DNA of 63,844 nucleotides from the UHGV virus genome UHGV-0109393; one strand, written 5' to 3'. Within the stretch, counting starts at the first letter, position 1. Every line of letters starts with the position of its first letter. Both the position numbers and the translations under genes were made by a program. Origin of the DNA: a virus. The notes beneath the pieces were generated by a model. The model saw only the letters and a program-made list of their open reading frames with translations, was not told the DNA's origin and did not search any database. Positions 14,524 to 51,035 of this stretch are shown here, piece after piece.

Positions 14524-14839
14524 CCTGTGTGTCTACAAAACATCCCAATGATCGGAAAATGTTCTCTCGATGATTTGTATTAGAAAATTAATTTGCTGTT
14601 TCTAAATCGGAATGTATGATCTGCATCATCGACTGAAGTCATCCATTGCTGAAATTTTTAGTTGATCTTCCATGTTTTCAGGCTTATATTCATGCCGTCG
14701 TAGCAAATTCTGCGACCAGGTTTGACAGCCTGAATGTTAGTGCGGACAACCGCAGATTTCCGATATTGCGGTATTTTTGTGTCCGTAAACCGCGTTACGC
14801 CCGAATTATGGTGGGGCGTGATGGGGAGGCTTAGGCCTG

Positions 14840-14910
14840 CTGGTTTCACTAACGCCAGTCTGTCAACCCTGTCACGTCCTGCCACCTGTTTGACAGCGGG
14901 TAGCAGGTTG
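14840..14910 (+). ncRNA. Candidate c4-type antisense RNA with target sites (module 1); boundaries approximate
   Basis: GTTTGACAGC occurs at 14720 and 14889; its near-complement TCTGTCAACC sits between them at 14858; a second pair is CCTGCCACC / GGTAGCAGG; all lie just upstream of the icd-like RBS. Confidence 0.3.
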
Positions 14911-26945: not shown

Positions 26946-27528
26946 ATGCATACAGGGACTCGCTTTGGCACCGAGCAAGCCAAAGTTCAGCAGGTTTAGT
27001 GCGTAAAGTGGTTTCAGAGAGAGCACTTTACGGAGTAAACAACAAGACATGTTGAGCCACGGAAGGTCTTTTTAAGATGTTCATTGATGATGGTCCGGCA
27101 GAGAGTAACGGGACTCGCCGCATCGAATCATCATCAATGCACATCCTCAACATTAAGGAGGCATAGGGATTTTTTTGTGGCGATTACCTTTTGCCCTAAG
27201 TCTCCTTAATGTTGCGGTAATGCACCTATGCGGATGCGGCCTTGCATTGTGTCTTGAAAGAATGGGGTAAGGCCGGGGATATCCCCAGGGGGAGGCACCC
27301 CCGCTGCAACGAACAGCCACAGACGGCAGTCGAGTGATGGAAACGTGCAAAGACTTTAAACCTCGTTACGGCTGGCGTGGCAAACGCGACAACCGAGACA
27401 GAGCGGTGACGGGCGGAGAGAGTGCCGCATCAAGAAAGAAGCCGACTTGTGATCCCTTTCTGCGGGCATTTGAAAGTGAATCCAGCTCAGGCAGTCGGCT
27501 TCTTTCTTGTGTGAGATGTAGCGTATTT

Positions 27529-27552
27529 GCCCATCTTCGGGTGGGCTTTTTT
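27529..27552 (+). terminator. Rho-independent terminator, possible 3' end of a small RNA
   Basis: GCCCAtcttcgGGTGGGC followed by TTTTTT; preceded by a 16-bp stem (CAAGAAAGAAGCCGAC / GTCGGCTTCTTTCTTG). Confidence 0.6.
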
Positions 27553-28012
27553 AGGGTTTTCGTCATGGTTAGCGACTTTGCGGCGGTTTAGAACCCGACC
27601 ATTAAAGTAAATGCAAACGATGATCTGATGATGGTAGCGGCCTAAGAAGCCTGACGCCACGGGGTATGAGTCGTCCCCCGTCAAAAAATCGACCGCAGAG
27701 TGTCCCCGTCTGTGTATTAGGGAACGGGGAGGCATAACAGGCAAGGGCGCTGGTGTGATTAACCAGATGAATGAGAAGGGTCAGGTCTTTCTGGTCAGCG
27801 CCCTTACCTGTTACGTCCCTCCCGCGTAACAGCCATTGATTAATGGCTTTCTGGGATAACATCCTACTACGGGTATATCCCGTCATGCTGAAGGCGCTAA
27901 TCACGCTGGAAGCCAGGGTTGTGCATCCCCTGTTACCGAATTGCAGCCAGGGCGCGGTGCGCCGAAAAGCATACGGAGGTGGAAGCCCTCGCCGGAGACG
28001 TACCCGGCAAGT

Positions 28013-28089
28013 GATGGTGTAGCTCAGTAGGATAGAGCAGCAGCCTTCTAAGCTGTCGGTCGGTGGTTCGAATCCACCCACCATCGCCA
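28013..28089 (+). tRNA. tRNA-Arg (anticodon TCT)
   Basis: Hand-folded cloverleaf: acceptor GATGGTG/CACCATC, D-arm GCTC..GAGC, anticodon loop CTTCTAA, T-loop TTCGAAT, encoded CCA; resembles E. coli argU. Confidence 0.85.
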
Positions 28090-28091
28090 AT

Positions 28092-28167
28092 GCCGGTTTA
28101 GCTCAGTTGGTAGAGCGCCTGCCTTGTAAGCAGGATGTCAGCGGTTCGAGTCCGTTAACCGGCACCA
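28092..28167 (+). tRNA. tRNA-Thr (anticodon TGT)
   Basis: Acceptor GCCGGTT/AACCGGC, anticodon loop CTTGTAA, T-loop TTCGAGT, encoded CCA. Confidence 0.85.
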
Positions 28168-28168
28168 A

Positions 28169-28255
28169 CACAACAGGTAAGGGTATTTTGCGACGTCGGA
28201 GATCGCCGTGCTTGGCAGAGGGTTCGAATCCCTACGAAGTACCCTTACCGTTGTG
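28169..28255 (+). other. tRNA-like hairpin element B (pseudo-tRNA or structured RNA)
   Basis: 16-bp stem (CACAACAGGTAAGGGTA / TACCCTTACCGTTGTG, one mismatch) enclosing a T-arm-like AGGGTTCGAATCCCT; cannot be folded into a canonical cloverleaf. Confidence 0.4.
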
Positions 28256-28632
28256 ATGAAGTGCAGCTCTTTGAAGCAACCAGAAGATAAGCATCTGGCT
28301 TCACAACATAAACCGCAGGAACGACCAATAAACGGTAGTCCGTATGGAGAATACCCCGTTGAGGAAGAGGCCTGGCCGGAACCGTAACCGGCACTACAAC
28401 GTTGAGAACACTGACGTAACGGGGTCATATCCCAATCTACGAATAAATGTTGCGTTGCAGCGTGACAACCAGTGTTCTCAACGTTGTGGTGGATTCGCAG
28501 ACTGATGCGATAGCTTTCTTGGATGTTAGGGAAATGCGGCCGCAAACCTTCCCTTTCGCGAGCGGTGATCGTCCGTAGTCCTAATTGGCTGCACCGTATG
28601 CCGGAGATTCAGTACCGGCCACCACAACGGCC

Positions 28633-28719
28633 GGAGAGTAGGGAGCATGGTGCTCAAGCGGTCTTGAAAACCGTCCCATTGCGCAAGCGATGATGGTTCG
28701 ATTCCATTACTCTCCGCCA
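28633..28719 (+). tRNA. tRNA-Ser (anticodon TGA), long variable arm
   Basis: 87 nt; acceptor GGAGAGT/ACTCTCC; anticodon arm GCGGTCTTGAAAACCGT nearly identical to E. coli tRNA-Ser(UGA) as recalled; T-loop TTCGATT, CCA. D-arm fold uncertain by hand. Confidence 0.6.
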
Positions 28720-28993
28720 GCGCAACGTTAAGAGTATTTGGCTAATTAAGCGAATGCCGGAAGCAGAACCGGATCACCAAATGCGTACAGGCGTCATCGC
28801 CGCCCAGCCAGCCAAGTGCTCTTACCATTGCGGTGAATGCGGCTAAGCGCACGCGGAACAGTTAAAACAATTTTCCTCAATAGTGAAGTCAAACATCCCG
28901 GCGTTAATTGTTAACTGGTTAACGTCACCGGGAGGCACCCGGCACCGCAATCTAACAGCAATGGCGTTTTGTCTTAAAAGGTAGCTGCAAGTG

Positions 28994-29122
28994 ATGGATT
29001 TTTGGGCCTTTGCCGATAAGAACCCTGGTTGGACATTTTTATTTCTGCTGGTGGTTGCATATGGGATCGAGCAAGCGGCAAAAGCCTTACGCGGTTCTGG
29101 CAAAAAGCGTAAGCGGAATTAA
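28994..29122 (+). CDS. Candidate small membrane peptide (42 aa), hydrophobic core with basic tail
   Basis: MDFWAFADKNPGWTFLFLLVVAYGIEQAAKALRGSGKKRKRN; not in the ORF track (under 60 aa); lies between the second AGGCA hairpin and tRNA-Ile2. Confidence 0.25.
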   Translation: MDFWAFADKNPGWTFLFLLVVAYGIEQAAKALRGSGKKRKRN

Positions 29123-29131
29123 CAGTAATCT

Positions 29132-29206
29132 GGCCCTTTAGCTCAGTGGTTAGAGCTGGCGACTCATAATCGCACGGTCACCGGTTCAAGTCCGGTAGGG
29201 GCCACC
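29132..29206 (+). tRNA. tRNA-Ile2 (anticodon CAT, ileX-like lysidine type)
   Basis: Near-identical architecture to E. coli ileX as recalled (GGCCC-TTAGCTCAGTGGTTAGAGC...CTCATAA...GGTTCAAGTCC...GGGGCCACCA). Confidence 0.8.
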
Positions 29207-29660
29207 ATATTTGGTTGTAACACGGCGTATGGCACATGCGTCGTTAGCGGTCTGGTGACGTTAAAGGGGTTACCTTTTCCCCTAGCTCAGGCAACAAACC
29301 AGGTAGCCGGAATGTGCAAGCCCCGTTCATATCGTCGGACCGAGGACTCACCATCCTGGCGATTCGGTGTGACAGCCGGAAGAGTACGGCGCACAACAGG
29401 AAAAGGCGTTTAATTAGCGTGAGCGCCGTTTCCGTTGTGGTAATTGCGGCTATGCGCTCGTGACGAAGCCATTTTCATTCACTACGTTCTGATAAGTGAC
29501 GTCGCCAGGAGTGGCTAACCTGGCAGGTGGAGGCACCACCGCCACAACTCCTTTCAATTCATCATATAGCCGCTCAGGCTGTAACCCTTAATTAATACGA
29601 AGTTTCGACATCTCTATCGGTTTAACCGAGGGATGGTCGCGCGTGTAAAAAGGAGACGTT

Positions 29661-30236
29661 ATGTTAACGGCGAACGATAACGCGTATGCAGAAGCAGACC
29701 TCATATTGAGTGACTTCATCGGTCAGCGGGAACGCTGGACACAAAAGCGAGAGGAACTTTATGCCTCGTTAGTTCGCAAAGGTGTCAACATTGAAACCGC
29801 TCAAAGCGGCGATATGACGGTAGTCAGTGTTGGATTACATGGTGTGAGCGTGTCCGCAGCCAATCATGAGCCATACGTAGCGTTATCCGAGTCGATGGCA
29901 AGGCTAATTAAGTTTCTGAAGCAAACAGAAGCCAATAATGTTTTCATCGCCAAAAAGAACATCAATTTTTCTGCCGCCATGTTCTGGATGATGAAGGGGC
30001 TGGATGCCCGCCGGGCATCATGGCCTAAAGGGAGCTATTTATCGATGTTCCGTGGCAGCATTGGCAGCAAAGAAAAGCTCTTCGAATTCTTGCCGGAAGA
30101 GGCATTCGATATTGTGGAAGGGTGCGATGTGATGGTTATGCCTCGCCTGGTAATGATGAATGGGGATTTACAGGCGCAGACAGACTGGTTCGCAACTGGC
30201 GTGGATATTATCGCAACTGACTGGGAGGCATTCTGA
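29661..30236 (+). CDS. Hypothetical protein with a C-terminal W-x-K-x-G-x(3)-RR-x(2)-W motif (DUF2829-like)
   Basis: 191 aa; FSAAMFWMMKGLDARRASW...TDWEAF; paralogous motif in 37872..38534. Confidence 0.5.
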   Translation: MLTANDNAYAEADLILSDFIGQRERWTQKREELYASLVRKGVNIETAQSGDMTVVSVGLHGVSVSAANHEPYVALSESMARLIKFLKQTEANNVFIAKKNINFSAAMFWMMKGLDARRASWPKGSYLSMFRGSIGSKEKLFEFLPEEAFDIVEGCDVMVMPRLVMMNGDLQAQTDWFATGVDIIATDWEAF

Positions 30237-50750: not shown

Positions 50751-50855
50751 AATACTGACTGTTGCGCCCTGGCATTATCGTGGGGTATATTTCTACGGCA
50801 CCTTAGAAAAACGGGTGCCGGGATTGGAACCCCGGATAATGCAAAAGGCGACACA

Positions 50856-50877
50856 GACGCCGAAAGCGTCTTTTTTT
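50856..50877 (+). terminator. Rho-independent terminator
   Basis: GACGCcgaaaGCGTC followed by TTTTTTT. Confidence 0.7.
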
Positions 50878-50899: not shown

Positions 50900-51035
50900 T
50901 ACGTAGCGTTTAGCTCAGAGATCAATGGTAGTGCTGGCTGGGCTGCCGAAAGGCAGGCCGGTTCCCTTTTGCGCCGGTAGTTCCAACCCAGTCAGTGCTA
51001 CCGCCATTGAGATTGGAACCTCACGCGGTAGCTCC
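50900..51035 (+). ncRNA. Candidate c4-type antisense RNA with target sites (module 2); boundaries approximate
   Basis: GATTGGAACC at 50821 and 51011 with its complement GTTCCAACC at 50980; second pair GCTACCG (50997) / CGGTAGC (51026); tRNA-like TAGCTCAGAG stretch; immediately upstream of the icd-like RBS. Confidence 0.3.

Follow-up and report, generated by a model that had tools for sequence, protein, structure and literature searches.

The stretch analysed here, hereafter the window, is the 63,844-nucleotide (nt) sequence of the virus genome UHGV-0109393, in which positions 27000-30000 share 95% identity with Escherichia phage D6, a P1-like plasmid prophage. Phages P7 and P1 share part of this region, the equivalent there being the transfer RNA (tRNA)/tci region upstream of ban. 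In this tRNA-rich stretch, bounded by a pmgS-like gene and a Tad2-like gene, four tRNA genes (28013-29207, + strand) are interspersed with three copies of an RNA element encoded on the same strand (Table 1). A first-pass annotation of the sequence had recorded a short hairpin with an invariant AGGCA loop at each of these three places and had not placed the module in a described family. It was found that the three hairpins are homologous to one another, that their structure is under selection and that each forms part of a conserved pseudoknotted domain, which is the core of the prophage-encoded small RNA (sRNA) STnc100 (Rfam RF02076), related to PasD.

The hairpins GGGGG-AGGCA-CCCCC, CCGGG-AGGCA-CCCGG and GGTGG-AGGCA-CCACC were recovered exactly where they had been reported, and they are the only AGGCA-loop hairpins with a 5-base-pair (bp) Watson-Crick stem on either strand of the 63.8-kb window, all of them on the + strand and within 2.3 kb. 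The AGGCA pentamer itself is not enriched in the window (137 sites against 141 expected) and, with 0.165 such hairpins expected per window, none of 200 dinucleotide shuffles reached three. When any loop is allowed, 10 of the 200 shuffles (5%) contain some loop in three hairpins, and the bare count is weak, suggestive evidence only once the choice of loop is free; the hairpins were accepted as real because of their extended homology and structure, and not because of their number. The C-rich tails GCTGCAAC, CACCGCAAT and GCCACAAC follow the hairpins as had been described. By aligning and folding about 110-135 nt around each copy, it was verified that these tails pair with segments located 80-115 nt upstream (GTTGCGGT/GCTGCAAC, ATTGCGGTG/CACCGCAAT and GTTGTGGT/GCCACAAC). 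Since each tail is the 3′ strand of a closing stem, each hairpin represents helix P5 of a 100-125-nt domain. Hairpin and tail had been described correctly as sequences, but the hairpin is not an autonomous 15-nt site: it is the 3′-terminal helix of a five-helix pseudoknotted domain, of which the tail is half of the closing stem.

The minimum-free-energy folds of all three copies present the same multi-helix layout, in which five helices surround one junction in the order P1, an AAU linker, P2, P3, P4, a single A, P5 and the 3′ strand of P1. In the window copies, the closing stem P1 comprises 8-9 bp and the next linker 3-4 nt (AAU or AAUU), while P2 consists of 5 bp with a 1-nt bulge and the loop UAUGC or UAAGC; in most of the family this loop reads UNNGC, and 4-nt loops are found in a few relatives. 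A short P3 encloses the 5′ strand of the pseudoknot together with a variable insert, and the P4 loop holds the 3′ strand, so that the pseudoknot, with 5-7 bp, joins the segment just after P2/P3 to the P4 loop. P5 has the form N3-GG-AGGCA-CC-N3 and, as it directly abuts the 3′ strand of P1 with no linker in between, it can stack on P1. An AGUG is conserved about 11 nt upstream of the closing stem in several types of the element, and none precedes elements 1 and 3. Some other readings of short motifs were set aside: binding of CsrA was dropped, the loop having no GGA; an integron attC site with GTT...AAC ends was dropped, the order of the core sites being reversed and the type 2 copies being devoid of them; and mimicry of a Shine-Dalgarno (SD) sequence by GGAGG was weakened, considering that P1 itself carries GGAAGCACC.

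Table 1. Positions of the three elements, of their helices and of the neighbouring genes in the window (R1, covariance model described in the text)
Feature	Position	Strand	Details
Element 1 (100 nt, most diverged type)	27211-27310	+	R1 44.9 bits, E 7e-10, full length; fold z-score -2.8
Element 1, P1	27211-27218/27303-27310	+	followed by linker AAT
Element 1, P2	27222-27237	+	GCACC-UAUGC-GG-A-UGC
Element 1, pseudoknot	27238-27243/27269-27274	+	GGCCUU with AAGGCC
Element 1, P4	27264-27267/27283-27286	+	GGGG/CCCC, assigned by homology; linker A 27287
Element 1, P5 (first hairpin)	27288-27302	+	GGGGG-AGGCA-CCCCC
tRNA-Arg(TCT)	28013-28089	+	ARAGORN, Rfam
tRNA-Thr(TGT)	28092-28167	+	ARAGORN, Rfam
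tRNA-Ser(TGA)	28633-28719	+	ARAGORN, Rfam
Element 2 (125 nt)	28827-28951	+	R1 123.2 bits; Rfam STnc100 43.9 bits
Element 2, P1	28827-28835/28943-28951	+	ATTGCGGTG/CACCGCAAT, followed by linker AAT
Element 2, P2	28839-28854	+	
Element 2, P3	28855-28856/28898-28899	+	GG/CC
Element 2, pseudoknot	28859-28865/28911-28917	+	CAGTTAA with TTAACTG
Element 2, P4	28900-28907/28919-28926	+	GGCGTTAA/TTAACGTC; linker A 28927
Element 2, P5 (second hairpin)	28928-28942	+	CCGGG-AGGCA-CCCGG
Small open reading frame (ORF), 42 amino acids (aa), membrane-like (compare phage P1 tciC)	28994-29122	+	start 42 nt past element 2; read from sequence
tRNA-Met/Ile(CAT)	29132-29207	+	ARAGORN, Rfam
Element 3 (115 nt)	29434-29548	+	R1 63.1 bits, E 1e-14
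Element 3, P1	29434-29441/29541-29548	+	GTTGTGGT/GCCACAAC, followed by linker AATT
Element 3, P2	29446-29461	+	
Element 3, P3	29462-29465/29500-29503	+	GACG/CGTC
Element 3, pseudoknot	29467-29471/29512-29516	+	AGCCA with TGGCT
Element 3, P4	29504-29509/29519-29524	+	GCCAGG/CCTGGC; linker A 29525
Element 3, P5 (third hairpin)	29526-29540	+	GGTGG-AGGCA-CCACC
191-aa gene (D6 orf6)	29661-30236	+	first gene downstream of element 3; ATG 112 nt past the element

The selection for structure was evaluated by covariation. When RNAalifold was run on the raw MAFFT alignment, the pairing was wrong at the 5′ end, with the closing stem of types 1 and 3 one register off, and for this reason a hand-specified structure and a covariance model were used. 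In an unfitted MAFFT alignment of 34 sequences, 89.9% of the cells pair, against 31-38% with slid partners, and 21 of the 33 pairs change on both sides, values that none of 500 shuffles reached. P5 is 100% paired in this alignment and presents three covarying positions (CG/GC, CG/GC and UA/GC swaps). Among 92 distinct sequences, 96.6% of the cells are paired and both partners change in 22 of 26 pairs, although this alignment was fitted to the model and P5 was fixed by the way in which the sequences were collected. Thus, the idea that the compensatory stem changes reflect a selected structure, already put forward in the first-pass annotation, is borne out by the counts on both sets. The swaps extend to the other helices: P2 alternates between GCGGC/GC-CGC, CCCCC/GG-GGG, CCUUUC/GAAAGG, CUCACC/GGUGGG and CCCUC/GA-GGG across the family, with GCACC/GG-UGC in copy 1, and P3, with 2-5 bp, covaries as GG/CC, GA/UC and GACG/CGUC.

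For the pseudoknot, about 10 different complementary duplexes were found in a first set of sequences, with a mean of 6.65 contiguous Watson-Crick bp between cognate strands versus 3.8 between non-cognate ones, and a second set added about 50 more duplexes, with 5.4 versus 3.5 bp under the same search. Examples include CAGUUAA/UUAACUG, UGGUUAU/AUAACCA, AGCCA/UGGCU and GAACUG/CAGUUC, and copy 1 has GGCCUU/AAGGCC. Additionally, G·U pairs exceed A·C pairs by 46 to 7, and therefore the folding strand is the + strand, that is, the sense strand of the neighbouring genes.

A covariance model, named R1, was built from 30 type 2 and type 3 relatives and included no window copy and no type 1 sequence. 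With filters off, R1 found exactly three sites in the window, all of them full length and with scores between 44.9 and 123.2 bits (E 7e-10 to 2e-30; Table 1), the next-best score being 9.5 bits. The same model gave 49-64 bits on the STnc100 cores that pass the Rfam threshold in two viral contigs (L196 and L204). In the opposite direction, element 2 matched Rfam STnc100 at a permissive threshold, the match spanning positions 31-147 of the 206 in the model (43.9 bits, E 1e-8). All three copies display the STnc100 core structure, namely the closing stem, P2, P4 and a terminal 5-bp AGGCA hairpin abutting the closing stem. The Rfam gathering score of 47 bits calls only copies of type S, the stand-alone form (in L196 and L204); those of D6, phage P1, the window, E. 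coli K-12 and phage LASTA are not called.

Relatives of the element are widespread. Phage D6, the closest relative, contains all three copies, and in its copy 2 the P5 stem is CCTGG/CCAGG instead of the CCGGG/CCCGG of the window, a compensatory change between close relatives. By blastn, element 1 was found elsewhere in D6 only (99% identical), element 2 in D6, P7 and lambdoid, Shiga toxin (Stx) and Klebsiella phages, and element 3 in the Klebsiella phages LASTA, SJM3, SopranoGao and ZX1 and in some Escherichia phages, with the similarity stopping at the closing stem in each case. Copies therefore exist in related phages with the stem conserved, contrary to the outcome that the first-pass annotation had named as speaking against a selected structure. 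Among the matches listed for a 19-nt motif of the 5′ half (GGTRAWTGCGGCTAWGCGC) in viral contigs, at least 129 instances (in at least 120 contigs) were obtained, and in 120 of the 129 the motif is accompanied by a hairpin with 5 bp and a 5-nt loop, directly after which comes a closing strand of 6 bp or more; among these 120, AGGCA is the loop in 114, AAGCA in 3 and AGGAA in 3. In 596 Gb of genomes, the same motif led to 26 parsed elements, all from Enterobacterales except two contigs of metagenome-assembled genomes that resemble E. coli contamination. About 34 further matches fell in unrelated phyla, where about 35 would be expected by chance in 596 Gb; none has the hairpin and closing stem, and they served as a negative control. 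When a 3′ motif (CACCGGGAGGCACCCGGCACC) was used for a reciprocal scan, the 5′ half was found again in 104 of 132 instances among the matches listed (at least 120 contigs), and many P2 variants were revealed. The family is thus very common in enterobacterial phages and prophages, with at least 120 viral contigs per motif scan, 11 copies in E. coli EDL933 and two in E. coli K-12.

The genomic context of the module was determined from annotated records and from the immediately downstream ORF, since ORF density per strand was uninformative (198 kb vs 203 kb). Lambdoid phages carry the element in their leftward early operon, immediately upstream of kil. In E. coli K-12, the space from the DicF terminator to dicB in the Qin prophage is taken up by the element (L315 1940-2100, corresponding to NC_000913.3 ~1649439-1649599; 115.7 bits with R1), as is that from the KilS terminator to kilR in the Rac prophage (L126 6258-6405, ~1418257-1418404, minus strand; 113.1 bits). 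The element precedes tciA in phages P1 and D6, ends 3 nt before tRNA-Arg in phage LASTA and forms arrays of up to four modules after tRNA genes in L196 and L204. Among the matches listed in viral contigs, the next SD-preceded ORF most often begins 20-39 nt downstream (108 of 258 modules), and the commonest downstream product is DicB (PF05358, E 2e-40), followed by KilR-like and TciA proteins. In general, dicB, kilR, tciA and small ORFs lie 20-45 nt downstream of the element and in the same orientation, and other copies precede a tRNA, a terminator or unrelated ORFs. Tandem arrays of 3-5 copies, about 255-670 nt apart and beside tRNA genes, were also observed (L204 2265-3380, L254, L211 and L222), and each copy in the viral-contig arrays has a different pseudoknot sequence.

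Regarding the genes next to the elements in the window, the 42-aa ORF that comes after element 2 had no match in a Pfam search, and the same ORF also comes after the element in another viral contig (L114). In comparison with D6 (L001 4950-5600), the window is devoid of tciA and tciB after element 2 (28951-29130), and only this tciC-like ORF is kept between the element and tRNA(CAT). The first-pass annotation had placed the third hairpin about 120 bp upstream of the gene at 29661, in agreement with the 120 nt measured here from the end of the hairpin to the ATG. In the 191-aa product of this gene, annotated as hypothetical in D6, a Tad2-like domain (Thoeris anti-defence 2; PF11195, E 1.5e-9) was identified at the C-terminal end, at residues 102-190.

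Other structured sequences occur on the + strand of the same region. At 27426-27556, a long hairpin (AAGAAAGAAGCCGACU...AGUCGGCUUCUUUCUU) is followed by a strong intrinsic terminator, GCCCATCTTCGGGTGGGC-TTTTTT, at 27529-27546; the Rfam DicF model had no match there, homology to phages P1 and P7 begins at about 27526, and the P1 annotation has a 'dicF-like region' ahead of its tRNA genes. Upstream of tRNA-Arg, a long stable hairpin, CAGGCAAGGGCGCTGG...CAGCGCCCTTACCTG, spans 27700-27830 (z-score -4.0). Directly after tRNA-Thr, a degenerate tRNA-like sequence (28176-28249; fold z-score -3.6) has an acceptor-like stem of 10 bp (GGTAAGGGTA...TACCCTTACC) and, in GGGTTCGAATCCC, a canonical T arm, but no proper D or anticodon arm, and it is called neither by ARAGORN nor by the Rfam tRNA model. 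A further hairpin between tRNA genes, at 28392-28491, has a stem of 22 bp with perfect pairing (CACTACAACGTTGAGAACACTG...CAGTGTTCTCAACGTTGTGGTG) and is branched in its interior (-52 kcal/mol, z-score -8.65); it is a candidate RNase III substrate. For the element itself, the study of dicBF regulation gives no support for cleavage by RNase III, since the known site of DicF maturation is upstream of dicF and not in the long closing stem (bioRxiv 10.1101/2023.04.14.536235). The sequence AGTGATGG occurs three times in the region on the + strand (27333-27340, 28010-28017 and 28990-28997), each time at the start of a feature: the first at a possible ORF that comes after element 1, the second at the 5′ end of tRNA-Arg and the third at the 42-aa ORF's start codon; in the whole window it was observed 4 times versus 1.7 expected, and 7 of 100 shuffles reach 4.

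In D6 (RefSeq NC_050154; L001 4009-4714), the tRNA genes are annotated on the strand opposite to that of the Rfam tRNA model (L001 4009-4081 and 4087-4159, + in the orientation of the locus), and the first of them is annotated as tRNA-Asn, the homologous gene of the window being read by ARAGORN as tRNA-Arg(TCT). Phage P1 is usually described as having a single c4 locus. In the window, Rfam detects two separate C4 antisense-RNA loci on the + strand (14804-14889 and 50921-51008), the former preceded by an a1/b1 target motif (14684-14736) and the latter by an isrK-like RNA (50798-50876). No phage P1-type C1 operator was found in the window, and a 'ban-operon-like, C1-controlled' promoter could not be demonstrated.

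Taken together, these data make it probable that the window harbors a conserved STnc100-core RNA domain that is co-transcribed with its neighbours and survives as a stable small RNA and/or as a structured leader. The domains would be transcribed rightward together with the tRNAs and small ORFs and would fold during transcription into a compact, nuclease-resistant knot. The nucleases of tRNA processing and mRNA decay would then cut the transcript, and the knot would persist as a stable small RNA; this persistence is proposed here and matches the stand-alone relatives, which accumulate and associate with Hfq. An ORF usually begins 20-45 nt downstream of the module, which may also act as its structured 5′ cap or leader. 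The likeliest contact surfaces for a partner, be it protein, ligand or RNA, would be the top of P5 (GG-AGGCA-CC), which is invariant, and the P2 loop, which is conserved.

Several points weigh against this proposal. None of the three window copies reaches the STnc100 gathering score, the best being copy 2, and elements 1 and 3 have no Rfam match at E<=10. The window copies also have no promoter, terminator or U-tail of their own as the stand-alone relatives do and, with terminator and U-tail lacking, the association with Hfq may not carry over to them. Co-transcription, processing and stability in this phage are what we infer from the arrangement of the locus and from the relatives. Element 1 can also be drawn, according to folding models, with a nested helix, GGCCUUGC/GUAAGGCC, plus GGGG-AUAU-CCCC in place of the pseudoknot. 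Finally, the role of a stable module would by itself leave the invariant P5 loop and the elaborate pseudoknot unexplained, features that suggest a specific ligand or partner. A broader proposal, possible though rather doubtful at present, is that the STnc100 core constitutes a distinct modular class of phage structured RNA, with a five-helix tRNA-shaped junction, a hypervariable pseudoknot and an invariant GG-AGGCA-CC tip, which would bind a host or phage factor or a small ligand and, placed before dicB, kilR and tciA, beside anti-defence genes and in tRNA arrays, would gate expression or act as a decoy. If this were true, the module would be a regulatory or anti-defence RNA device overlooked by current annotation, including the two copies of K-12.

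Among the alternatives, a cis-regulatory leader, either a riboswitch-like aptamer or a protein-binding operator, would sense a ligand or factor and set the translation or stability of the next ORF, whose product is typically a small membrane protein or an inhibitor of cell division that is toxic. The compact pseudoknotted fold, with invariant nucleotides in junction and loop and a tolerated variable insert, has the usual appearance of an aptamer, and the short distance to the next ORF in the viral contigs, the predominance of DicB, KilR-like and TciA products downstream and the filling of the dicF-dicB and kilS-kilR gaps in K-12 agree with such a function. However, the downstream genes are heterogeneous, with a tRNA following in LASTA; the type S copies are stand-alone genes with a terminator and no ORF; copy 3 of the window sits 112 nt from its gene; and the interval from the element to the start codon showed neither a conserved expression platform nor a terminator or SD-sequestering helix. 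This explanation is considered unlikely. The order of the helices recalls instead a class-II-like cloverleaf, with P1 in the place of the acceptor, P2 in that of the D arm, P3 of the anticodon arm, P4 of the variable arm and P5 of the T arm, in which case the RNA would be a tRNA mimic that enzymes of tRNA processing or tRNA-targeting nucleases meet as a substrate, guide or decoy. The evidence for this mimicry consists of helix order and neighbourhood: the short linkers (3, 0, 0, 1 and 0 nt) also match a class II cloverleaf, P5 abuts P1 as the T arm abuts the acceptor, and phage tRNA genes are repeatedly nearby (in the window, at 3 nt in LASTA and in the L196 and L204 arrays). But ARAGORN finds only the four true tRNAs, and the Rfam models of tRNA, transfer-messenger RNA (tmRNA) and YrlA are not matched by the elements at E<=10; where a 7-nt T loop would be expected, the loop of P5 comprises 5 nt and shows no UUCRANY signature; a CCA or discriminator context is lacking; nothing in tRNA corresponds to the pseudoknot; and many copies, such as the dicB and kilR leaders, are far from tRNA genes. 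A tRNA mimic is consequently regarded as quite unlikely.

The first-pass annotation had suggested an antitermination site, an RNA-binding-protein site or a processing signal, functions that are all conjectural. Antitermination would require nut/boxB-like or put-like sites that load an antitermination factor or modify RNA polymerase for passage through the structured tRNA region, and it fits poorly. The boxB pentaloops of phages lambda and P22 are GNRA-like (GAAAA, GAAGA and GACAA). The AGGCA loop is not, although the hairpin has the size of boxB (5-bp stem and 5-nt loop), and it is locked in the five-helix domain rather than autonomous. As for boxA, an octamer similar to it (UGCUCUUA, 28817-28824) adjoins the 5′ side of element 2 at its closing stem, and the UGCUCUUU that precedes phage P1-type copies corresponds to the first 8 nt of the rrn boxA; yet a boxA (CGCUCUUA or UGCUCUUU) was not found a few nt upstream of the hairpin, UGCUCUUA being about 100 nt 5′ of P5, and no boxA-like motif precedes copies 1 and 3 or the lambdoid copies. 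The elements do occur in long operons with terminator-like hairpins (e.g., 27529-27546 and 29405-29427), and the K-12 copies come just after the DicF and KilS terminators, but the lambdoid element is downstream of N and several ORFs, away from the nut positions, and this function is therefore considered very unlikely. It is extremely improbable that the element is not an RNA at all and reflects chance palindromes or sites acting as DNA, such as protein-binding inverted repeats, recombination sites or single-stranded hairpins. The marginal bare count and the sharp, cassette-like boundaries of homology would be compatible with this possibility; it is contradicted by R1, which detects all three copies at full length at E<=7e-10 and nothing else in the window, by the covariation across five helices and the pseudoknot, by the strand-asymmetric excess of G·U over A·C, by the freely varying arm sequences, which speak against a sequence-specific double-stranded DNA site, and by the detection of relatives as RNAs (PMC8550237, PMC5331693).

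Returning to the STnc100-core reading, it is useful to compare the window copies with the systems already described. Resemblance to the nut sites of lambda and P22 is limited to a 15-nt hairpin in a phage operon and the boxA-like octamer beside one copy, while loop type, spacing, context and the larger fold differ. The K-12 dicF-dicB and kilS-kilR leaders, by contrast, are true homologues of element 2, with the same P2, pseudoknot (CAGUUAA/UUAACUG), P4 and P5, although their closing stem, with about 21 bp compared with 8-9 bp in the window, extends to within a few nt of the SD sequence of dicB or kilR, and the Rac copy has a decayed P5 with one broken pair (CCTGG/CCAGA). These K-12 copies have no RNA-gene annotation and are not called by Rfam at threshold, and the dicF-dicB element is not described in a recent study on how dicBF is regulated (bioRxiv 10.1101/2023.04.14.536235). 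As in K-12, a DicF-like RNA accompanies the elements in the window (27426-27556) and in phage P1 ('dicF-like region'). The position of the module directly before dicB and kilR makes its function accessible to standard genetics in K-12.

PasD1 and PasD2 of enteropathogenic E. coli were described as structural homologues of STnc100, and STnc100 and PasD as related prophage sRNAs of unknown function (bioRxiv 10.64898/2026.05.13.724894). PasD is encoded in lambdoid prophages, was detected by Northern blot and by RIL-seq, in which interacting RNAs are ligated and sequenced, is abundant and depends on Hfq for its stability (PMC8550237). Its link to the window copies comes from the literature only, and it is a trans-acting sRNA gene located near Q and the lysis genes, whereas the window copies lie in a P1-like tRNA region and have no terminators. 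PasD is the best evidence that this fold accumulates as RNA.

The closest described system is STnc100 itself, annotated in Rfam as 'Gammaproteobacterial sRNA STnc100' and known from Salmonella and pathogenic E. coli. In EDL933, 11 copies are transcribed, one of which was confirmed by Northern blot (PMC5331693), and one STnc100 copy is found 75 nt downstream of stx2 (PMC12370729). STnc100 and the window copies share phage origin, the presence of several copies per genome and the proximity of phage tRNA genes (PMC5331693). Consensus positions 31-147 of STnc100 have the same closing stem (GGUG...CACC), AAU linker, P2, P4 and an identical P5, CCGGG-AGGCA-CCCGG, and the consensus reads exactly CCGGGAGGCACCCGG followed by CACC. 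However, members above the Rfam threshold form stand-alone genes about 206 nt long, which have a 5′ extension on the promoter-proximal side and end in a Rho-independent terminator, located about 25 nt after the core in the type S gene of L196, whereas the window copies comprise only the 100-125-nt core and are embedded in an operon; none of the three elements is followed by a terminator-like site, the + strand sites of the region being only those at 27529, 28495 and 29405. The sequences of P2, pseudoknot and insert differ as well, and the Rfam consensus structure contains no pseudoknot, to which the well-supported pseudoknot of the window-type fold would be an addition. The three window copies are regarded as core-only, diverged and embedded variants (paralogues) of the known STnc100 family, and the three sites should be annotated as STnc100-like structured RNA modules instead of blank intergenic DNA. 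The Rfam model covers the stand-alone sRNA form only and misses the embedded, core-only modules present in P1-like, D6-like and lambdoid phages, in the Rac and Qin prophages and in Klebsiella phages, which belong to the same family as STnc100.

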